The notes under the pieces were generated by a model. The model had not been told where the DNA came from. It did not search any database and worked only from the letters and a program-made list of their open reading frames with translations. The position numbers and the translations under genes are program-made. This document shows, piece by piece, positions 50 to 32,103 of a DNA stretch of 32,153 nt (the stretch's first letter is position 1; the number at the start of each line of letters is the position of its first letter). The stretch is from the UHGV virus genome UHGV-0053799; one strand, 5' to 3'. This DNA comes from a virus.

Positions 50-1213
50 TCACTCATCATCTTCTGTTTCGTACTCCACATCAGAAAGCCTGACCTCAAG
101 CTCTAAGGACGTCGTGAAGCCGCTATTATTCAGAAAATGTGTCACCTTAGTGATTGTCCAGTCCTGCTCGTCTATGACGCGCTTAAAGCCTGACACTTTA
201 ACCGGTGTTTCCGTGTAAATATCTGCCCGACCGGTAGCCAGGCTGATGGAGAACTCCGCGACGCCCCGTTGCAGTTTGTCCCACTTTGCCTGAGCGGCGC
301 GCATGGCCTGCGCTTTTGTGGCATATACCGTAGTCAGGGCAAAAACGTTGTCAGCTTCACCGGCCATGTATTCACCTTCGCGCGCTTCCGGTACTTTTGG
401 CGCTTTCTTCTGCGTGACCGGTTTCGCTTTCGGGTGCTCCAGTGCGCGCAGGTGTTTTTCTTTCTTTTTGCGTTTCAGTTTTACCTTCTGCTTTTGAGGC
501 TTCGGGTCTTTGGTGTGTAACCACTTTGCCGTTACACCGGTGTAGGCTCCACGGTCAGCAATCGCAAAATGGTGACGGTCGCCATCGCTGCGGGTGATGG
601 TAATCTGCGGGATTTTTTTACCGCTGGCCGTCACCCCCTGCCCCGCTTTGAGAAACAGCAGTTTTCCCATTTTTACCGACACCTCACCGCCGTTGCGTTC
701 TGCAAGACGGGTCAGGAATTTCGCATCGGACTCCTGCGACTGGTCGATGTGCGGGATTTTAATTCCGGCCAGTGACGGAGCGATACTGGCTTCCAGCTTG
801 TTACGGGAGGCTATCGCCTCAACAATCGCACCGAGCGTGGTGTCATGCCAGGAGCCTTCACGGCGGGAATTGAGCGTCCCGCGAAAATCTGCACTCCGGG
901 CGCGGATGGTAACCACATCCGGCGCGCCCCGGTGTTCAACCTCATCAACGGTAAATTTCCCTTTGCATACCAGGGCAAAACCTTTCCAGCCGATATACAC
1001 CGTCAGGACAGCGCCACGAATCGGTAGCTCGACCTGCCCGTCGGCATCGTTCAGTTCAATATCAAGCTGGTCAGCCTCAAAGCCCCGGTTATCCGTCAGG
1101 GTCATGCTCATCAGACGGTCGCTGATATTGCCGGTAATATCCCTGCTGTCGAGCATCAGCATGTAATCCGGCGTCAGCGTACTGCCTGCATCAAATGTCA
1201 GCGCATCCAGCAT
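50..1213 (-). CDS. D: Tail protein D (late control gene D)
   Basis: 387-aa ORF (MLDALTFDAGSTL...) last in the FI-FII-E-T-U-D block; size and sequence fit P2 gpD as recalled. Confidence 0.9.
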   Translation of the reverse strand: MLDALTFDAGSTLTPDYMLMLDSRDITGNISDRLMSMTLTDNRGFEADQLDIELNDADGQVELPIRGAVLTVYIGWKGFALVCKGKFTVDEVEHRGAPDVVTIRARSADFRGTLNSRREGSWHDTTLGAIVEAIASRNKLEASIAPSLAGIKIPHIDQSQESDAKFLTRLAERNGGEVSVKMGKLLFLKAGQGVTASGKKIPQITITRSDGDRHHFAIADRGAYTGVTAKWLHTKDPKPQKQKVKLKRKKKEKHLRALEHPKAKPVTQKKAPKVPEAREGEYMAGEADNVFALTTVYATKAQAMRAAQAKWDKLQRGVAEFSISLATGRADIYTETPVKVSGFKRVIDEQDWTITKVTHFLNNSGFTTSLELEVRLSDVEYETEDDE

Positions 1214-17801: not shown

Positions 17802-18545
17802 TTAACTGGCTTTCTTTTTCGGGCGTCCACGTTTTGCCGGTGTCACGCTCCGGGTCTTACGCGGGGCACGGGTGACCGCTTCGGGCTGCGGCTCCGGCTT
17901 CGGTTTCAGCTCCCGCTCCAGTCGTTCAATCTCTTTTTTGACGCCTGCCTGACAGTCGAGCTGTGTCGCACGTTGCAGGTGCGCCAGCGCACCGGCGGCA
18001 TCACCAGCGTCACGCAGAAACAGACCGGTGATTTTGTGCAGCTTTGCGCGCACTTCATCAGGCATGTCTGCCGTGGCGGTCAGTTCAAGGGTGTCCGTCA
18101 GCAGGCGGGTATCCACAGACTCACCGGCAGCGTGAGCGCGCATGGCCGCGAGCGCCACCTCCTCGGTGAACATGTACGGCGGGGTGCGGCGGTGTTTACC
18201 CGGCATGGTCAGACCGTACTTCAGGGCATAACGGGCAATCTCCAGCGCACCGGCAATATCGCCGGTATCCAGACGCCACAGCATGACCGTCATCAGAATG
18301 TCATCCTGTGCACCTTTGCCCTGCTCCAGCACGCCGTTCACCCACGGCAACCAGAACGGCAGCAGTTCGCGCTTTTTCGCGGCCTTAAGCTCTTTTGAAT
18401 AAATCGCTTTCAGTGTGCGCTGGTCTGCGGCGAGCTTAACCAGCATCTGCTCATAGACAGTTGCATGTCGCAGCGGGGCGGCTTCCCGCTGCGCGGTCAT
18501 CGCTGCCGAGACCCGCATCATGTGGCGCTGTGCGGGACTCGTCAT
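17802..18545 (-). CDS. M: Terminase endonuclease (small) subunit M
   Basis: 247-aa ORF, basic C-terminus, same length and position as P2 gpM. Confidence 0.9.
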   Translation of the reverse strand: MTSPAQRHMMRVSAAMTAQREAAPLRHATVYEQMLVKLAADQRTLKAIYSKELKAAKKRELLPFWLPWVNGVLEQGKGAQDDILMTVMLWRLDTGDIAGALEIARYALKYGLTMPGKHRRTPPYMFTEEVALAAMRAHAAGESVDTRLLTDTLELTATADMPDEVRAKLHKITGLFLRDAGDAAGALAHLQRATQLDCQAGVKKEIERLERELKPKPEPQPEAVTRAPRKTRSVTPAKRGRPKKKAS

Positions 18546-20535: not shown

Positions 20536-20708
20536 TGTCAGGAGTCCTGAATAGTGATTAGAGGAGTCACATGTCGGCATCAGTTTCCCGACGATGCGCA
20601 TCCTCCGCCATCAGTCCCGGATGGCTTATCACTGACACAACAGCACCTTAGCGAATCGCGGGGCGCGACTCAGTAGCCTTGCCGTGTATTCATCACGGCG
20701 AGGTATTC

Positions 20709-22481
20709 ATGACCATCACCACAGACACCACTCTTTTACACGACCCGCGTCGTCAGGCGGCGCTGCTGTACTGGCAGGGGTTTTCCGTGCCGCAGATTGC
20801 CGCCATGTTGCAGATGAAACGCCCGACGGTGCAGAGCTGGAAACAGCGCGACGGCTGGGACAGCGTTGCCCCCATCAGCCGTGTCGAAATGAGTCTGGAA
20901 GCGCGGCTGACCCAGCTCATCATCAAACCGCAGAAAACCGGCGGGGACTTCAAGGAAATTGACCTGCTGGGACGCCAGATTGAACGACTGGCACGGGTCA
21001 ACCGTTACAGCCAGACCGGCAACGAGGCAGACCTTAATCCGAACATCGCTAACCGCAACAAAGGCGGGCGTCGCAAACCGAAAAAGAATTTTTTCAGTGA
21101 CGAGGCCATCGAAAAGCTGGAGCAGATTTTCTTTGAGCAGTCTTTCGAATATCAGTTGCACTGGTATCGCGCCGGGCTTGAGCACCGCATCCGCGATATC
21201 CTGAAATCCCGCCAGATTGGCGCGACGTTTTATTTTTCCCGCGAGGCGCTGCTGCGCGCCCTGAAAACCGGTCATAACCAGATTTTTCTGTCGGCCAGTA
21301 AAACGCAGGCGTATGTGTTCCGCGAATACATCATCGCCTTTGCCCGGCTGGTTGACGTTGACCTGACCGGTGACCCGATTGTCCTTGGCAATAACGGCGC
21401 AAAACTGATTTTTCTCGGCACCAACTCCAACACCGCACAGAGCCATAACGGCGACCTGTACGTCGACGAGATTTTCTGGATCCCGAATTTTCAGGTACTG
21501 CGTAAGGTGGCATCAGGTATGGCCTCACAGAGTCACCTGCGCTCGACCTATTTCTCCACCCCGTCCACGCTGGCGCACGACGCCTACCCGTTCTGGTCGG
21601 GTGAACTGTTCAACCGGGGACGCGCCAGCGCCGCCGAACGTGTGGAAATCGACGTCAGTCATAACGCCCTTGCCGGTGGTCTTCTCTGTGCGGACGGCCA
21701 GTGGCGGCAGATTGTCACCATTGAGGACGCCCTGAAAGGCGGCTGCACATTGTTCGACATTGAGCAGCTCAAACGCGAAAACAGCGCCGACGATTTTAAA
21801 AACCTGTTCATGTGTGAATTTGTTGACGACAAGGCATCGGTGTTCCCGTTTGAGGAGCTGCAACGCTGCATGGTCGACACGCTGGAAGAATGGGAAGACT
21901 ATGCGCCGTTTGCCGCCAATCCGTTCGGCTCACGTCCGGTATGGATTGGTTACGACCCGTCACACCGTGGCGACAGCGCCGGATGCGTGGTGCTGGCACC
22001 GCCGGTGGTGGCCGGTGGCAAATTCAGAATACTTGAGCGTCACCAGTGGAAAGGCATGGACTTTGCCACTCAGGCGGAATCCATCCGCAAACTCACCGAA
22101 AAATACAACGTCGAATACATCGGAATTGATGCCACCGGCCTCGGTGTCGGCGTGTTCCAGCTCGTGCGCTCGTTCTATCCCGCCGCGCGTGATATCCGCT
22201 ACACGCCGGAAATGAAAACCGCAATGGTGCTCAAGGCAAAAGACGTTATCCGCCGTGGCTGTCTGGAATACGACGTCAGCGCCACCGACATCACCAGCTC
22301 GTTTATGGCTATCCGCAAGACCATGACCAGCAGCGGACGCAGCGCCACCTATGAGGCCAGCCGCAGCGAGGAAGCCAGCCACGCCGACCTCGCCTGGGCG
22401 ACCATGCACGCCCTGTTAAATGAGCCACTCACCGCCGGTATCAGCACCCCGCTGACATCCACCATTCTGGAGTTTTACTGA
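20709..22481 (+). CDS. P: Terminase ATPase (large) subunit P
   Basis: Start placed at MTITTDTTLLHD (20709), 590 aa; transcribed divergently from O. Confidence 0.9.
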   Translation: MTITTDTTLLHDPRRQAALLYWQGFSVPQIAAMLQMKRPTVQSWKQRDGWDSVAPISRVEMSLEARLTQLIIKPQKTGGDFKEIDLLGRQIERLARVNRYSQTGNEADLNPNIANRNKGGRRKPKKNFFSDEAIEKLEQIFFEQSFEYQLHWYRAGLEHRIRDILKSRQIGATFYFSREALLRALKTGHNQIFLSASKTQAYVFREYIIAFARLVDVDLTGDPIVLGNNGAKLIFLGTNSNTAQSHNGDLYVDEIFWIPNFQVLRKVASGMASQSHLRSTYFSTPSTLAHDAYPFWSGELFNRGRASAAERVEIDVSHNALAGGLLCADGQWRQIVTIEDALKGGCTLFDIEQLKRENSADDFKNLFMCEFVDDKASVFPFEELQRCMVDTLEEWEDYAPFAANPFGSRPVWIGYDPSHRGDSAGCVVLAPPVVAGGKFRILERHQWKGMDFATQAESIRKLTEKYNVEYIGIDATGLGVGVFQLVRSFYPAARDIRYTPEMKTAMVLKAKDVIRRGCLEYDVSATDITSSFMAIRKTMTSSGRSATYEASRSEEASHADLAWATMHALLNEPLTAGISTPLTSTILEFY

Positions 22482-23515
22482 TGAGCAAGAAAAAAGGGAA
22501 AACACCGCGACCAGCGGCAAAAACAATGACCGCCAGCGCCCCGAAAATGGAGGCATTCACCTTTGGTGAGCCGGTGCCGGTACTCGATCGCCGTGACATT
22601 CTGGATTACGTCGAGTGCATCAGTAACGGCAGATGGTATGAGCCACCGGTCAGCTTTACCGGTCTGGCAAAAAGCCTGCGTGCTGCCGTGCATCACAGCT
22701 CCCCGATTTACGTCAAACGTAATATTCTGGCCTCGACATTTATCCCGCATCCGTGGCTTTCCCAGCAGGATTTCAGCCGCTTTGTGCTGGATTTTCTGGT
22801 GTTCGGTAATGCGTTTCTGGAAAAGCGTTACAGCACCACCGGTAAGGTCATCAGACTGGAAACCTCACCGGCAAAATATACCCGCCGTGGCGTGGAAGAA
22901 GATATTTACTGGTGGGTGCCGTCCTTCAACGAGCCAACACCTTTCGCGCCCGGCTCCGTGTTTCACCTGCTGGAGCCGGATATCAATCAGGAGCTGTACG
23001 GCCTGCCGGAATATCTCAGCGCCCTTAACTCTGCCTGGCTGAATGAATCAGCCACGCTGTTCCGCCGCAAGTATTACGAAAACGGCGCACATGCCGGATA
23101 CATCATGTACGTCACCGATGCCGTGCAGGATCGCAACGATATCGAAATGCTCCGCGAAAACATGGTGAAGTCGAAAGGCCGCAACAACTTTAAAAACCTG
23201 TTTCTCTATGCCCCACAGGGGAAAGCCGACGGCATTAAAATTATCCCGCTCAGTGAAGTGGCAACGAAGGACGATTTTTTTAATATCAAAAAAGCCAGCG
23301 CCGCTGACCTGCTGGACGCGCACCGCATCCCCTTTCAGTTGATGGGCGGCAAGCCGGAGAACGTCGGGTCGCTGGGTGATATTGAGAAAGTGGCAAAGGT
23401 CTTTGTCCGCAATGAGCTTATCCCGCTACAGGACAGGATCCGCGAGATAAACGGCTGGCTCGGTCAGGAGGTCATCCGCTTTAAAAACTACTCACTGGAC
23501 ACTGACAACGGCTGA
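22481..23515 (+). CDS. Q: Portal (capsid vertex) protein Q
   Basis: 344-aa ORF; TGATG stop/start overlap with P; last gene before cos. Confidence 0.9.
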   Translation: MSKKKGKTPRPAAKTMTASAPKMEAFTFGEPVPVLDRRDILDYVECISNGRWYEPPVSFTGLAKSLRAAVHHSSPIYVKRNILASTFIPHPWLSQQDFSRFVLDFLVFGNAFLEKRYSTTGKVIRLETSPAKYTRRGVEEDIYWWVPSFNEPTPFAPGSVFHLLEPDINQELYGLPEYLSALNSAWLNESATLFRRKYYENGAHAGYIMYVTDAVQDRNDIEMLRENMVKSKGRNNFKNLFLYAPQGKADGIKIIPLSEVATKDDFFNIKKASAADLLDAHRIPFQLMGGKPENVGSLGDIEKVAKVFVRNELIPLQDRIREINGWLGQEVIRFKNYSLDTDNG

Positions 23516-23520
23516 ACATC

Positions 23521-23542
23521 GCCGCCTGCGGGCGGCTTTTTT
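23521..23542 (+). terminator. Rho-independent terminator after Q
   Basis: GCCGCC-tgcg-GGCGGC followed by TTTTTT (23537-23542), 5 nt past the Q stop codon. Confidence 0.8.
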
Positions 23543-23684
23543 ACACCCCGTCATCACGCCCTCACACGCTCACCACAGCACAAAACACCCCGCAGACACA
23601 CCAACGCCTCAACGGGCAGACTAAGCGCCTTCACGACGCGCTGAGACGCTGAAAAAATAAAATCAGCACCACCGTCAGCGCGCA

Positions 23685-23703
23685 GTGCTTTCCCCGCCTC
23701 GCC
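23685..23703. other. cos: cos cohesive-end sequence
   Basis: Plus strand gtgctttccccgcctcgcc is the reverse complement of GGCGAGGCGGGGAAAGCAC, which I recall as the P2 19-nt cohesive end; position directly beyond Q fits. Confidence 0.75.
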
Positions 23704-23828
23704 CGCCCGCTTCATGGGGCGGTTTTAATGCAGTTGCATGAGCCCACTATAAGTGCATTAGAACTGGCTGAATGAAGAGACAGCGCTTAATCTAGGAAGA
23801 TGCAATAAAATGCAACGCAATGCACTTC

Positions 23829-24527
23829 TTACAACTTCGTCATTGCTGACTCAAATTCATCATTAAATGGCTTAATTTGAGATGATGTTAGTTTTTTTAC
23901 GAACTTTTTTGTTGTTGTTTGAACTACGATTCTACCTTCACCAAGAGCATTCCCCTGGCATTCTTTTACGAACCATTCTTGAGTTACTGATGTGGTAATA
24001 CTCATTGGGATCACAAGCGTTAATATATCTCCGTAGTCTTCTAAAACATGCGGTAACTTGCCAGAGATAAGCGTCCTGGGGTTTACCAATATATTCATTG
24101 CTTTATTATTAGAAAATTGCAACACAACTGATTGAATATTACTCCTTACTTTTCTTTTGTTTGTTATGGTTATTGATATTGCTGTATCTGTAGTGCTAGG
24201 TAAGTACATTGATGGCATTAACACCATGCTATATCGAATAGCAATTTCTTCTGAATTTTCCTTTAGCGAACGGTGTGCTAACAACAATGATGTCGCAACA
24301 GCAGAAAATGCCCCCACCCCAGAAACCCAAGTACCCAACATGGTCAAAAAAGGTATTGTAATTAATTGGTATTTAGTGTCACCATTCAAACCAACACCAC
24401 TATAACCCACGTAACACCCTATAAAAAAGAATAGACAAGCCGTTATTAAAAAAAATAATAAATGCATAGAACTTATATTTTTAAATTTCAGCAACAAACC
24501 TCTTAAAATATATTTGCATCTCTTCAT
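23829..24527 (-). CDS. Hypothetical membrane protein, 2 N-terminal TM helices + ~130-aa soluble C-terminal domain (cargo)
   Basis: 232-aa ORF; hydrophobic LLFFLITACLFFFIGCYVGY and ITIPFLTMLGTWVSGVGAFSAVATSLLLA; a 60-nt sample has 18% G+C. Confidence 0.55.
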   Translation of the reverse strand: MKRCKYILRGLLLKFKNISSMHLLFFLITACLFFFIGCYVGYSGVGLNGDTKYQLITIPFLTMLGTWVSGVGAFSAVATSLLLAHRSLKENSEEIAIRYSMVLMPSMYLPSTTDTAISITITNKRKVRSNIQSVVLQFSNNKAMNILVNPRTLISGKLPHVLEDYGDILTLVIPMSITTSVTQEWFVKECQGNALGEGRIVVQTTTKKFVKKLTSSQIKPFNDEFESAMTKL

Positions 24528-24625
24528 TTTCTAATCTCACATTAAAATCAGACACCAATTTTTGCTAGTCACTATTTTTATGATTGCCAGCATAAATGCT
24601 GGCATCTTTATCATTCTGGCACAGT

Positions 24626-25357
24626 TCACTCACTTATAATTGATACAACCTCACCTGTTTCTACATTGACACGCGCAGCAATCGTCTGTTTCACCACTCC
24701 GCCATAAGCATTAGTTCCGCGAAACGTGGTTTTCACAATGGCATGCGGGTCTTTATTCAAAATCAGATGATATACCGTTGACACATGTTTATAAGATGAA
24801 TCATCGTTCATATTATCTTTAATTAGTTTTTCCAATGGACGATAAGAACCATCCCAACCACTAAAATTACTCTGAAATGTATCAAGATTGATTTTATTGT
24901 TTAGTGACTTCGGGTCATTTTCATAATCATTAAAGCACCACCCAAGAACATCACCGAGTTTCAACTCATCATCTTTGGTAAATGTATACTCACTCATGCA
25001 GGCATAAAACGCATCTGACGCGGCGGCTGGAACTTCCTTAAAATCAATGTAACTATTCACAATATCGTGTCGTGTTTTCTTTGACTCGTTCCGATATTCC
25101 TTGAGTGTTTTTTCACCATATTCGAATGTTTTTTGGACTTTGTGTTCTGCAACGGTTGATGTTTCAGTTTTAGCAACTGGCTGGCTTTTTTCTGTTGGAT
25201 AGAGTATTGAACCAATTATGCTCAATACAAAACCACCTCCGAGATAAACCGCACTTGCACGTTTGCGGTTTGGCATTCGCACCAGTGATGGCCTGATTAA
25301 CCCGATGAAGAAAGCAACGAAAAAAGCGAGTGATAGAAAAGCGATTATAGTATCCAT
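24626..25357 (-). CDS. Hypothetical membrane-anchored protein, 2 N-terminal TM helices + ~180-aa soluble domain (cargo)
   Basis: Start placed at the in-frame ATG 25357 (MDTIIAFLSLAFF...) because AAGGA lies 6 nt upstream; the track ORF extends to 25399 without an RBS; 243 aa. Confidence 0.55.
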   Translation of the reverse strand: MDTIIAFLSLAFFVAFFIGLIRPSLVRMPNRKRASAVYLGGGFVLSIIGSILYPTEKSQPVAKTETSTVAEHKVQKTFEYGEKTLKEYRNESKKTRHDIVNSYIDFKEVPAAASDAFYACMSEYTFTKDDELKLGDVLGWCFNDYENDPKSLNNKINLDTFQSNFSGWDGSYRPLEKLIKDNMNDDSSYKHVSTVYHLILNKDPHAIVKTTFRGTNAYGGVVKQTIAARVNVETGEVVSIISE

Positions 25358-25580
25358 AGCTATCCTTTTTGCATCATCCACATAAAAAATCGACCTCATG
25401 TTAGCAACAGGATGCTTACTTTTGAATATTTGTAAGTTGTTAGCTCTCCAACCTAACTCTTTTCAACCGTCAAAAACCAGCACCAACGCAGTAAAAATAT
25501 GTCTGTCAACTAACGCCTCGCTTCGCTCGTTGTTCAACCCCGCCAGCCCTGAAAACAAGTTTCACGACTGGCGGCGTTCT

Positions 25581-25787
25581 CTATCGTCTGCGTGGTGGTG
25601 GCGCAACTCTGGACTGACCGATATCGTTAAACCGTCTGTAATTATCCCGGACTATTTCGGCACACCCGACCAACTCGTCAGGCGTCAGATTTTCGTTGAG
25701 CATAATCTGCTGTAGACGGTGAACAATGGCCATCAGTTTGATATTTTTAGTTTTATGGTGCGGTATCTCGCCTGGTATTCTGTGCAT
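25581..25787 (-). CDS. Small hypothetical protein (68 aa)
   Basis: ATG at 25787 overlaps the TAA stop of the upstream ORF (TAATG), suggesting translational coupling; no recognisable motif. Confidence 0.3.
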   Translation of the reverse strand: MHRIPGEIPHHKTKNIKLMAIVHRLQQIMLNENLTPDELVGCAEIVRDNYRRFNDIGQSRVAPPPRRR

Positions 25788-26242
25788 TATCCAAGCCACC
25801 CATTTTGCTTTGCACGCTCCACCTGTTCATCTGAATAGTTCCATATCCCATCCGTAGCAACCACTGCCCCGCCAGACATCCCCGTCTCTGGTTCATACAT
25901 AACAGCAAGGCCGAGCTGATGCATAATCTCATGATTAATTCTGAATACCAGACCACGTTCACTAAGTTCTTTCCAGTTCACAATCTTATATGCGCCCGTA
26001 TTAAGCAGCTCAATACTTAGCAAGACATAATCTTCCAGCCAGTCTGACAGGTCAGTAACATCTGTTATCCGGGCTTCAACCTTTCGCCCCGTAAACACAC
26101 CCTGCACCCATTCATGCAAAATCAGCGTGTCCCCGCGCTCATAATTACGGTCATTTTTCCGAAACTCTGCGCGTTTCTTTCCTTCCAGCACAAGGTCAAA
26201 ATATTTGGCGTGCAGCTTTACCTCGTGAATTTTTGCCATCAT
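25787..26242 (-). CDS. ASCH/DUF3850-like (PUA-fold) protein with a C-terminal extension
   Basis: GKKRAEFR fits the ASCH motif GxKxxExR; GGAG RBS; start ATG overlaps the A stop codon (ATGA); C-terminal extension contains HEIMH. Confidence 0.65.
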   Translation of the reverse strand: MMAKIHEVKLHAKYFDLVLEGKKRAEFRKNDRNYERGDTLILHEWVQGVFTGRKVEARITDVTDLSDWLEDYVLLSIELLNTGAYKIVNWKELSERGLVFRINHEIMHQLGLAVMYEPETGMSGGAVVATDGIWNYSDEQVERAKQNGWLG

Positions 26243-28524
26243 TTCCACTCCATTACTATTGAGAATCCCGGCCACTCATCAGCGACCGGATACGTGAATT
26301 TTTTCCCGTCGTAATTTACGGTCGCGCCACGCGCCAGCGCCTCAAGCTCCCATCGCTGCGGCCTGATACCGTTCTGAGCGAGATCAACGCGGATACGGGT
26401 GATTTGCAATCGTTCAGACCGGGTCAGTCTGGCCGATGGTGCAATTTCATGTGGTTTTAACGGGCTTCCGTTTCTTTGCTGACGATTTGGTGTTCTCAGG
26501 TCGTGTTTTAATGCCCCCCTGAGCGCCCTCACGACCTCCGTGTCGTTCCATTCGATAACACCGTCATCAACCAGATTAAGCACTGCTGCGGCGTGTTCAG
26601 AAGGTGTGGGAGCCGGTAACGAAGTATCACCACCGGTGAGCTTTCCACAGTTATTGACAGGACTCCGAGGCGCGGCGATGCCGCTTTTTAAAGTCAAAGG
26701 CTCAACGACCGGAACTTTCGGCACAATGCGCCAGTCCGTCGTTCTGGTGATATGAATATGACGCGCGCCGAGATGCGGCGCGTAAATGCCGACCACTCTC
26801 TCGACTTCTTCCTCGTACTCGTTAACTTCATCCGACGGACTACGGGCAACCCTGACAGTCTGACAATCGCGCGGGACATTTGCCCCACCCTGCGCGCTGA
26901 TATACAACGCAAAATCACCACTGTCTGCGGCGGCGCGTGCAGCCTCGACGCGCTCGTCAAACTCATCAGCAATGCTGACGCCGCGAGGCAATTTGCGTAG
27001 TTCACGGTAAGCCCCCATTGTCGGCAGACCAACCGTTTTAAATTGTGGGATGCGCCACGTTGACGCCCATGCGGTAACAGCCGCAGCAGTATCTTTAAGC
27101 GGTCTGCCGGTATCGTTATCGAGCTGACCATCCAGTGCATAGCCATCGATGTTTTTTGAGATGTATTTCGCGATATACCCCGCAGCACCGCCCTGGTTAA
27201 GGTGTTTTGCCTGAAAACGGTTTCGCGCGGCTCCTCTTTCGTCGCCATCCTCTTTGAGCGCATAGCGACGCATGATTTCGATAATCTGGTTACGCTGGCG
27301 TGGATTACAAAAAAGCATCATATGCCAGTGCGGCGTTCCGTCGTGGTGTGGCTCGACGACACGCAAACCGTAGACCTGTAAATCATTATCCTTGAATGCC
27401 GTGCGCATCAGGCTCCAGATGCGGCAGAGATAACGCTGCGCATCCTTTGGATTAAATGCCTCATCGTTCCAGCCGTGATTAAGCTGAACGGTTTTACTTT
27501 CGCCTTTTCTGACCTGACGAGTCGGGTGATACTTTGACGGCGCGGTCAGCGTGATAAACATCCCCACATCACCCTCTGCGGCGGCGTAACGCTCAATACC
27601 GGCAATGGTGTTCATCAGCTCCATCCGGCGAATTTCAGGATTAGAAATACTGCCCATCACCTTACTGATAAGGTCGATGCGCTCGCCGGTTTCCCTGTTT
27701 TCAAGGTCACACGATTTAAGAAATTCCAGATTTGCCTGGCGGCGTGCACGCACATCACGAATGGCATGTTTACTGGCATAAGGAGAACGGTCTTTATTCA
27801 CCTCCCCGACAGCAATCAGTAACGCCTCATGCCAGCGCATACGCTGGCCTTTGAGCTGATGAGTCCACCACTCATCGTTAAACAGACGGGCAATGGCAGA
27901 ATATGCCTGCCTCGTGGTCATCTGTCCTTTACGGTATTTTTTCCAGTAAAGCGGGGAAATATTGAAAGCACGTGCAGCGCCAGCAACATGACCATAGAGG
28001 TGAGCCTGCGCCTCATCCGTAAACAGCGATTCTTTTTCGCCATGTGCATCCACCCAGGCATCGCTGAGTTCCTCATACATCATGAAAAGCTGCGATGAGA
28101 TACGGGCAGCAAACTTTTTCAGCTCCTTGTCATTCATTCCCGGCAGGCGCGCATAGTGGTCACGCTCTGCCAGAAACAGTAACGACGCGTCGGTGTTCAT
28201 TTCATGGCGCTGATTCACACGCTCAATGCGCGGCCATAAACGACGCTGAAAAGTGGATGTGAGGAAATAAAACCCGTGCACCGGGCTTTTATTGCGCCGG
28301 ATGTAGTCATAGCGTGAAGTAAACAGCGAGCGCAAAAAGTAAGGCAGGCGGTTAATCGTGGATAAAACACCTTGCACCTGACGCATCTCGTCACGTGTAA
28401 GGGGTCTTTCGCGCCCGACGGCCTCGCGTGGCGCGTTCCATGCATAAGCACCGGTAAACGCCTTACCGGTGCCTGCAGCAAATGCTGACGGAGGGACAAA
28501 ACGCCCGGAGGCTTTAACGGCCAT
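26239..28524 (-). CDS. A: Rolling-circle replication initiator A
   Basis: Start placed at MAVKASGRF (28524), 761 aa; HUH-type motif TPHWHMMLF (about 27311-27334) and paired tyrosines YIAKY (about 27163-27177). Confidence 0.9.
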   Translation of the reverse strand: MAVKASGRFVPPSAFAAGTGKAFTGAYAWNAPREAVGRERPLTRDEMRQVQGVLSTINRLPYFLRSLFTSRYDYIRRNKSPVHGFYFLTSTFQRRLWPRIERVNQRHEMNTDASLLFLAERDHYARLPGMNDKELKKFAARISSQLFMMYEELSDAWVDAHGEKESLFTDEAQAHLYGHVAGAARAFNISPLYWKKYRKGQMTTRQAYSAIARLFNDEWWTHQLKGQRMRWHEALLIAVGEVNKDRSPYASKHAIRDVRARRQANLEFLKSCDLENRETGERIDLISKVMGSISNPEIRRMELMNTIAGIERYAAAEGDVGMFITLTAPSKYHPTRQVRKGESKTVQLNHGWNDEAFNPKDAQRYLCRIWSLMRTAFKDNDLQVYGLRVVEPHHDGTPHWHMMLFCNPRQRNQIIEIMRRYALKEDGDERGAARNRFQAKHLNQGGAAGYIAKYISKNIDGYALDGQLDNDTGRPLKDTAAAVTAWASTWRIPQFKTVGLPTMGAYRELRKLPRGVSIADEFDERVEAARAAADSGDFALYISAQGGANVPRDCQTVRVARSPSDEVNEYEEEVERVVGIYAPHLGARHIHITRTTDWRIVPKVPVVEPLTLKSGIAAPRSPVNNCGKLTGGDTSLPAPTPSEHAAAVLNLVDDGVIEWNDTEVVRALRGALKHDLRTPNRQQRNGSPLKPHEIAPSARLTRSERLQITRIRVDLAQNGIRPQRWELEALARGATVNYDGKKFTYPVADEWPGFSIVMEWK

Positions 28525-31089: not shown

Positions 31090-32103
31090 ATGGCAATCAA
31101 AAAACTCGATGATGGTCGATATGAAGTGGACATCCGCCCTACTGGACGTAACGGAAAACGCATCCGTAGGAAGTTTGATAAGAAAAGCGAAGCTGTCGCT
31201 TTCGAAAAATACACGTTGTACAACCACCACAATAAAGAATGGCTATCAAAACCAACAGACAAACGACGTCTGTCGGAACTGACACAGATCTGGTGGGATT
31301 TAAAGGGTAAACACGAAGAGCATGGGAAATCTAATCTTGGAAAAATTGAAATCTTCACAAAAATAACGAATGACCCATGCGCATTTCAAATCACGAAATC
31401 CCTTATCAGCCAGTACTGCGCCACCCGAAGAAGTCAGGGTATTAAACCTTCGAGTATCAATCGTGATTTAACATGTATTAGCGGCATGTTTACAGCCCTG
31501 ATTGAAGCGGAGTTATTCTTTGGTGAGCACCCTATCAGAGGGACAAAGAGGCTTAAGGAGGAAAAACCAGAAACAGGCTATCTCACACAGGAAGAAATTG
31601 CCTTACTGCTTGCAGCACTTGACGGCGACAACAAAAAGATTGCGATTCTTTGCCTGAGTACAGGAGCACGTTGGGGAGAAGCAGCTCGTTTGAAAGCAGA
31701 AAATATCATCCATAACCGCGTCACGTTTGTTAAAACGAAAACAAACAAACCACGCACCGTCCCGATCTCAGAGGCTGTTGCCAAAATGATCGCGGATAAC
31801 AAACGAGGTTTTTTATTCCCTGATGCTGATTACCCTCGCTTCAGACGAACAATGAAAGCAATAAAACCGGATTTGCCAACGGGGCAAGCCACACATGCAC
31901 TAAGGCACAGCTTTGCCACTCATTTCATGATTAATGGAGGAAGTATTATCACGCTACAACGGATACTAGGTCACACGCGGATTGAGCAAACTATGGTTTA
32001 CGCTCATTTTGCGCCAGAGTACCTTCAGGACGCCATTTCTCTTAATCCGCTAAGAGGTGGTACTGAAGCCGAGAGTGTCCACACAGTGTCCACAGTAGAG
32101 TAA
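31090..32103 (+). CDS. int: Tyrosine integrase
   Basis: 337-aa ORF with GGAGGG RBS; C-terminal catalytic region HALRHSFATHF...GHTRIEQTMVYAHF; same length and position as P2 Int. Confidence 0.9.
   Translation: MAIKKLDDGRYEVDIRPTGRNGKRIRRKFDKKSEAVAFEKYTLYNHHNKEWLSKPTDKRRLSELTQIWWDLKGKHEEHGKSNLGKIEIFTKITNDPCAFQITKSLISQYCATRRSQGIKPSSINRDLTCISGMFTALIEAELFFGEHPIRGTKRLKEEKPETGYLTQEEIALLLAALDGDNKKIAILCLSTGARWGEAARLKAENIIHNRVTFVKTKTNKPRTVPISEAVAKMIADNKRGFLFPDADYPRFRRTMKAIKPDLPTGQATHALRHSFATHFMINGGSIITLQRILGHTRIEQTMVYAHFAPEYLQDAISLNPLRGGTEAESVHTVSTVE

Follow-up and report, generated by a model that had tools for sequence, protein, structure and literature searches.

Beside the presumed cohesive end of a P2-like prophage lies a short inverted repeat followed by a run of T's, and the locus raises the question of whether this hairpin is a transcription terminator in its own right or belongs to the packaging site. 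The window analysed here, the virus genome UHGV-0053799 over its full length of 32,153 nucleotides, holds a complete P2-like prophage, which is inverted and extends from the tail gene D (50–1213, minus strand) to the integrase (31090–32103, plus strand). We read positions 23678–23824 as the cos site of an apparently intact P2-like (Peduovirus) E. coli prophage in which the hairpin is no separate element, and estimate the probability of this reading at roughly 0.85. The coordinates of the features are given in Table 1.

Table 1. Features of the cos region and its surroundings in the window.
Feature	Position	Strand	Basis or remark
Small terminase subunit gene (P2 gpM homologue)	17802..18545	-	PHROG 74 'terminase small subunit', E 6e-106
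Large terminase subunit gene (P2 gpP homologue)	20679..22481	+	Pfam; position as P2 P
Portal gene (P2 gpQ homologue)	22481..23515	+	Pfam Phage_portal; BLAST matches annotated portal / gpQ
tQ, intrinsic terminator of the P-Q late operon (GCCGCC-TGCG-GGCGGC + TTTTTT)	23521..23542	+	terminator scan
Putative nick half-site GCGCGCA; predicted nick 23684/23685	23678..23684	+	GCGCGC (nearly) invariant in 83 cores
19-nt cohesive end GGCGAGGCGGGGAAAGCAC	23685..23703	-	exact match; equals annotated P2 cosL/cosR
Hairpin CCGCCC, 8-nt loop, GGGCGG + TTTT	23703..23726	+	inside conserved cos core
Putative nick half-site GCGGGCG (read 23710 to 23704); predicted nick 23704/23703	23704..23710	-	
Palindrome ATGCAGTTGCAT (ATGCA-nn-TGCAT)	23728..23739	.	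25–36 bp from nick; candidate terminase-binding site
Spacer, variable in sequence, nearly constant in length (~60 bp)	23740..23799	.	box positions kept
Three TGCAT boxes, 10 bp apart	23800..23824	-	plus strand ATGCA at 23800, 23810, 23820
Cargo ORF 1, 232 aa, read towards cos	23829..24527	-	PHROG families without known function
Cargo ORF 2, 257 aa, read towards cos	24626..25399	-	PHROG 3403, function not known
A-like replication ORF, 775 aa	26239..28566	-	

The cohesive end and the identity of the cos site

The 19-mer GGCGAGGCGGGGAAAGCAC, which is the reverse complement of the plus-strand sequence gtgctttccccgcctcgcc at 23685–23703, is present in the window as a single exact copy (0 mismatches). 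By calculation, the chance expectation for an exact 19-mer in 32 kb, with both strands counted, is approximately 2e-7, and searches allowing up to three mismatches returned a mean of 0.03 matches in dinucleotide-preserving shuffles. The P2 record (AF063097) annotates bases 1–19 as 'cosL; left cohesive end' and bases 33575–33593 as 'cosR'. Both are identical to the window 19-mer, and the P2 sequence at cosL, ggcgaggcggggaaagcac, is found unchanged in the window. PMC3931495, too, gives this 19-mer for the cohesive end of P2. The first-pass annotation had identified 23685–23703 as the reverse complement of the P2 cohesive end; compared with both published sequences, its 19-mer shows no difference and the match is exact.

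The site also occupies the same position as in P2. BLAST aligned window 23500–23703 with P2 bases 202–1 at 96% identity, and P2 base 1 therefore corresponds to position 23703 on the minus strand of the window. Between the end of the Q ORF at 23515 and the 19-mer there are 169 nt, and the corresponding gap in P2 is 167 nt (Q at 187–1221, cosL at 1–19); the first-pass annotation had placed the site 170 bp past Q, as in P2.

The P2 cos site reportedly goes back to Padmanabhan, Wu and Calendar in 1974 and to Ziermann and Calendar in 1990. A 55-bp core of the P2-family cos, conserved and required for packaging, is credited to Ziermann & Calendar (1990) in PMC5694545, PMC9594776, PMC3931495 and PMC5247547. 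Counted from -30 to +25, 2 of the 55 positions separate the core of the window from that of P2, the first within the loop of the hairpin and the second on the outer margin; from the P4 core it differs at 4 positions, and the 62-bp core of the window has an identical copy in the IMG/VR viral contig collection. All defining features of a P2-type cos that are accessible to sequence analysis are present, namely the 19-mer, the ~55-bp core, the location and the prophage's own terminase subunits. Judged by its sequence, the window cos is an already known element in another copy, with a 19-mer identical to those of P2 and P4. It leaves the knowledge of P2 packaging unchanged and its value as an annotation is modest: by homology to P2, the site would fix the start and end of the packaged genome, as had been claimed when cos was said to pin the virion ends, and the prophage is shown to possess an intact packaging signal.

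Prophage context and cargo genes

Read along the minus strand, A, the cargo, cos, Q and P follow one another as they do in P2. The protein encoded by the gpP homologue matches the Pfam families Terminase_6N (5.8e-60), Terminase_6C (3.3e-47) and, in its N-terminal part, Terminase_5/HTH (2.4e-27); its true start is probably located a few codons within the longest ORF given in Table 1. That the prophage might be cryptic, or its cos out of use, and hence without virion ends, is highly improbable. Nothing positive was found in favour of such a relic, and several observations oppose it: the terminase, portal, tail, replication and integrase ORFs are all full length, the same region is 99.3–99.7% identical in five complete E. 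coli genomes (closest is E. coli O55:H7 USDA5905, with 99.7% over 23600–25800), and the 62-bp core, shared exactly with a viral contig, is two bases off the P2 core.

Because of the identity with P2 cos and the P2-like gene order, the cargo ORFs (23829–25399) are, as far as sequence comparison goes, placed at the virion right end and within the old/tin defence hotspot. The initial assignment of the cargo genes to the right end is thereby borne out, the order being P, Q, cos, cargo and A. In P2 this position is the old/tin locus, which Rousset et al. (PMC9122126) showed to be a hotspot of anti-phage systems beside cos in P2-like phages, and placement in this hotspot is the real reason to examine the two cargo ORFs, which are candidates for an uncharacterised anti-phage system. 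A further cargo ORF is found in the cos-adjacent hotspot at 25398–25715 (plus strand). Pfam and PADLOC searches of the three cargo ORFs (23829–24527, 24626–25399 and 25398–25715) returned no match, and all three belong solely to PHROG families without known function. The cos element is abundant in E. coli: among 5426 complete genomes, 2177 match part of the segment 23600–25800. Only six of the 5426 carry 80% or more of the cargo region, always as hypothetical proteins.

Between the cargo and the A gene, at roughly the position of P2 orf91, a 162-aa ORF (25787–26275, minus strand) carries DUF3850/ASCH and DUF7415. In Escherichia phage pro147 (NC_028896, 24016–24885) the cos core has reverse-transcriptase genes on both sides, annotated as 'polymerase; reverse transcriptase' and 'RNA-directed DNA polymerase', which represents another retron-type cargo at the cos hotspot.

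The hairpin and the terminator question

The hairpin is built from the arms CCGCCC (23703–23708) and GGGCGG (23717–23722), separated by an 8-nt loop (23709–23716) and followed by TTTT (23723–23726). These coordinates are as first annotated; the statement that the structure comes directly after the 19-mer required correction, as the two overlap by one base at 23703.

Conceivably, the hairpin is also a working plus-strand intrinsic terminator in the P2/P4 lineage, which would back up tQ by halting P-Q transcripts before they enter the cargo, or old-tin in P2, in antisense. With six G-C pairs, a UUUU tail and a folding energy of −13.6 kcal/mol it is accepted by the terminator consensus scan, its 8-nt loop being at the upper limit of that scan. 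However, the mean of the shuffles is −11.7 kcal/mol (z −0.79) and an equally good fold is reached by 46 of 200 shuffles of this G+C-rich stretch, so that the fold is no better than that of shuffled sequence, and terminator-like patterns arise approximately once per kb in shuffles of the hairpin region. The tail, UUUUAAUG, has only four U's, which are followed by AAUG, and reaches 5/8 by the lenient scan rule, against six U's in tQ. The latter, located ~170 nt upstream, folds at −14.4 kcal/mol (z −2.71), and the homologous P2 site is annotated 'tQ; putative rho-independent terminator for P operon'. The hairpin itself is not at the end of a transcription unit, as the P-Q operon ends at tQ and no plus-strand gene lies between tQ and the hairpin.

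The hairpin recurs in P2 and P4. At its extreme right end P2 reads gtgcattaaaaccgccccgtgaagcgggcg followed by ggcgagg, and the minus strand of the window reads ctgcattaaaaccgccccatgaagcgggcg followed by ggcgagg; the hairpin is present in both, with one substitution in the loop. P4 ends with ctgcattaaaaccgccccgcaaagcgggcg and begins with ggcgaggcggggaaagcac, the stems being identical and the loop carrying three substitutions. Identical stems with variable loops in the window, P2 and P4 have the look of a selected hairpin, and in P2 it is situated upstream of the mapped old-tin transcript starts, where an insulating role is conceivable; against this, P4 has no nearby gene transcribed towards the hairpin on the same strand. 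Being present in P2 and P4 as well, the hairpin is therefore within the published 55-bp P2/P4 cos core. The designation 'terminator-like' is thus accurate as the description of a pattern, and its separateness from cos is not, because the hairpin forms part of the core that P2 and P4 have in common. Curated records of P2 and 186 contain no terminator annotation at the position of the hairpin, and an Rfam search of 23300–24000 at E<=1 gave no family match.

Related sites were collected from viral contigs by a pattern scan in which the 20 hairpin positions were left free. At least 120 sites were obtained, with 66 distinct hairpin 20-mers among the matches listed. The pattern fixed CTGCATTAAAA and GNGNGGCGGGG, and those columns, the T-run included, are therefore not independent evidence. 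Among the matches listed, the nick-side arm AAGCGGGCRG (in P2 orientation) is almost invariant and the distal arm drifts without matching changes in its partner (CCGCCC, CCGACC, GCGACC, GCGATG, GTACCC and others). Covariation was counted in an ungapped alignment of 83 distinct related 62-bp cores. The hairpin positions are paired in 72.1% of cells, compared with 72.3% ± 0.3 after shuffling. Compensatory changes on both sides of a hairpin pair numbered 0 in the 83 cores, and the covariation score was within the shuffle range; as hardly any variation occurs at four of the six pairs, a weak structure would be compatible with this result. Folding energies of −12 kcal/mol or better were reached by 14 of the 83 cores (median −8.0 kcal/mol). 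Most relatives have one to three mismatches in the 6-bp stem, with two in 186, PSP3 and RSA1.

A conserved RNA structure at the hairpin was considered as a candidate and rejected on the basis of the covariation count and the z-score of the fold. Taken together, the absence of covariation, the ordinary fold, the presence of tQ upstream and the lack of an annotation leave the pattern match as what speaks for a terminator, and we judge a terminator function in addition to the role in cos unlikely. A terminator annotation would be warranted only with RNA data; the hairpin is best annotated as cos core.

Putative nick half-sites and predicted cleavage

The 186 record describes the 19-mer with the words 'top strand cut at 5' end and bottom strand cut at 3' end', and the nick positions predicted for the window (Table 1) follow from this annotation by homology. 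In the 83 cores, the heptamer 5' of one nick, GCGCGCA, is (nearly) invariant, then A or G, and the heptamer 5' of the other nick reads GCG(G/C/T)GC(A/G)^G; the two are identical (GCGCGCA^G) in 8 of the 83. This suggests a two-fold symmetric nick site with nicks 19 bp apart. Two-fold symmetric nicks are the usual logic of cosN-type sites. We infer that the cos-proximal arm of the hairpin is better read as a nick half-site, GCGGGCG^G, mirroring GCGCGCA^G on the other side. Such a role would explain why the nick-side arm is kept as sequence while the distal arm drifts.

According to this model, which draws on homology with P2 and 186, the terminase subunits gpP and gpM would nick the plus strand at 23684/23685 and the minus strand at 23704/23703. 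Both nicks would fall directly 3' of heptamers of the type GCGSGCR, related by two-fold symmetry, and would generate 19-nt 5' overhangs. The left end of the virion genome would come from the Q side (up to 23703) and the right end from the cargo side, the latter with its overhang from 23685 onwards and duplex from 23704. The hairpin loop, the distal arm and TTTTAA belong to the 55-bp core, which would be kept for recognition and cleavage by terminase on double-stranded DNA, as expected from a core that is common even to the otherwise unrelated satellite P4. The 6-bp complementarity of the hairpin would be specific to the P2/P4 lineage and without selection as a structure.

A different possibility is that complementarity matters at the level of the DNA, the inverted repeat being a palindrome for a dimeric terminase or a cruciform or hairpin that positions the nick. 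One arm of the repeat coincides with the nick half-site. Next to the other nick, on the left side, both the window and P2 have a further inverted repeat (AGCAC...GTGCT / GCGC...), whose stem reaches 11 bp in sequences of the PSP3 type, so that the layout is roughly mirror-image. However, the left-side repeat is missing from many members of the family and the distal arm varies freely in the family without compensation. Presumably, the terminases of all these lineages can cleave their respective sites even where no perfect repeat is present, and we consider a requirement for the repeat in cleavage quite unlikely. Sequence identity, position, the conservation pattern and the absence of covariation are direct results of the comparison; the nick positions follow by homology, and the roles of the half-sites and of the boxes described below are deduced from conservation.

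Palindrome, spacer and TGCAT boxes

Outside the core, towards the cargo, a further set of conserved motifs was found. The right ends were lined up on the cohesive end, with its first base as the origin for counting. TGCAT is present at -29 in the window, P2, P4, 186, PSP3 and the Ralstonia phage RSA1. Two further copies are at -111 and -101 in all of these except RSA1, where they are at -110 and -100, and the outermost copy is at -121 in the window, -123 in P2, -124 in P4, -124 in 186, -120 in PSP3 and -129 in RSA1.

The copy at -29 forms the right half of the palindrome, which is kept in 186, PSP3 and RSA1; P4 carries CTGCATTAAAACC. The left half, ATGCA at -36, is present in the window, 186, PSP3 and RSA1 and absent from P2 and P4. 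For a wider view we used 78 diverse family members with -200..-40 regions differing by more than 20%. ATGCA at -36 occurs in 57 of these 78 members, TGCAT at -29 having been fixed by the search pattern. The three TGCAT boxes are present in 57, 60 and 62 of the 78, against a background of 0.0011 per position; binomial P values would overstate independence because the members are homologous, and the meaningful contrast is that between the kept box positions and the largely unconserved spacer and outer flank. The interval -95..-40 is largely unconserved, although members of the 186 type show a weak inverted repeat between about -66 and -50.

The stop codon of cargo ORF 1 (23829–23831) is 4 nt beyond the outermost TGCAT box. 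In P2, the old-tin transcript starts are at -151 and -149 and the boxes overlie the promoter region; psu ends at -164 in P4 and the terminator t95b at -161 in 186. From these positions, the boxes seem to mark where cos ends on its outer side and where the cargo hotspot begins. Together with the ATGCAnnTGCAT palindrome they are probably the terminase-binding, cosB-like part of the site, an assignment made by sequence and by analogy. In the proposed mechanism, the palindrome and the helically phased boxes would bind terminase and would also delimit the cargo hotspot on its inner side. About 125 bp are probably needed for cos function. As one hint, a cosmid study (PMC9594776) reports that P2 transduction may benefit when the 55-bp site is given longer flanks.

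We tentatively propose, as a possible but doubtful extension, that the packaging site of the P2 family is larger and more structured than the 55-bp core and constitutes a cosB-like assembly site that bounds the defence hotspot. Its layout may comprise the symmetric GCGSGCR^ nick site with nicks 19 bp apart, the ATGCAnnTGCAT palindrome at -36..-25 and, further outward, a spacer of ~60 bp and nearly fixed length and the TGCAT boxes at about -124/-111/-101. From the sequences compared, this layout may be kept from P2, 186 and P4 to RSA1, with a changed box sequence in phiCTX. The outer edge of the box array as a hard boundary would explain why cargo cassettes always end ~125–165 bp from the nick. 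No earlier description of TGCAT boxes in connection with a P2-like cos or terminase was found in the literature searched, which consisted mostly of sources other than subscription journals. Should the proposal be true and no earlier dissection of the array exist, it would provide a concrete map of the bases that P4-like satellites must copy to hijack a given helper.

Comparison with other cos sites

P2 (AF063097 / NC_001895) has the same 19-mer, hairpin and Q terminator as the window and a nearly equal distance to Q. It differs in being without the left half of the ATGCAnnTGCAT palindrome, of which the window has both halves, and in its cargo: old and tin are read away from cos with the old promoter over the boxes, whereas the two large cargo ORFs of the window are read towards cos. 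P4 (NC_001609) shares with the window the identical 19-mer and hairpin stems as well as three TGCAT boxes, in addition to its CTGCATTAAAACC. Unlike the window, it has CGCGCGC in place of TGCGCGC on the left, its flanking genes psu and gop are unrelated, and it has no terminase of its own. The cos site is the only region that P4 has in common with P2-like phages (PMC9122126).

The Eganvirus phages 186 and PSP3 have the same architecture as the window, with the palindrome ATGCAACTGCAT. Their 19-mer differs from that of the window at two positions (GGCGTGGCGGGGAAAGCAT), and the two mismatches in their hairpin (CCGACC / GGGCAG) leave no stable stem. In the Pseudomonas phage phiCTX (NC_003278), boxes with a GCA core at -108, -98, -82, -36 and -27 are near the box distances of the window. 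The phiCTX boxes are of the type GCAG and not TGCAT, its cohesive end is 21 nt long and the hairpin is absent. The phiCTX record already annotates repeats R4, R5 and R6 across cos, so that repeats near cos are no new idea in the P2 family.

Lambda cos combines a partly two-fold symmetric cosN with staggered nicks and a nearby cosB with repeated R sites, and these repeated boxes bind the small terminase subunit. By analogy, we infer that the window cos may work alike in outline. The two differ in that there is no sequence similarity between the sites, the overhang is 12 nt in lambda and 19 nt in the window, and the terminase families are unrelated in sequence. P2 packages monomeric circles.

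Additional features around the cohesive end

On the minus strand, a second hairpin (23650–23689) with the stem AGCAC...GTGCT and ~10 pairs includes the final five bases of the cohesive end and has GATTTTATTTTTT directly behind it. This second hairpin resembles an intrinsic terminator more closely than the hairpin at 23703–23726. P2 has it as well; in 186/PSP3-type sequences the left-side stem is a different one and the T-run is absent. As it is the first terminator-like site of the scan past the cargo ORFs, cargo transcripts may cross cos before ending. A fold survey scored the left-side hairpin with T-run in 1 of 90 family sequences by the criterion applied, in a heterogeneous region where other hairpins dominated the minimum-energy folds.

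A 53-aa ORF with an ATG start (23554–23715, minus strand) begins in the loop of the cos-core hairpin and crosses the cohesive end. Several phage records, such as that of phage 9W, call a 'hypothetical protein' at this ORF; the curated P2 record has no gene there, and a 1-nt indel in P2 breaks the frame (gaggcgttgtgtg vs gaggcgttggtgtg). The ORF called across cos is very likely a spurious gene call.
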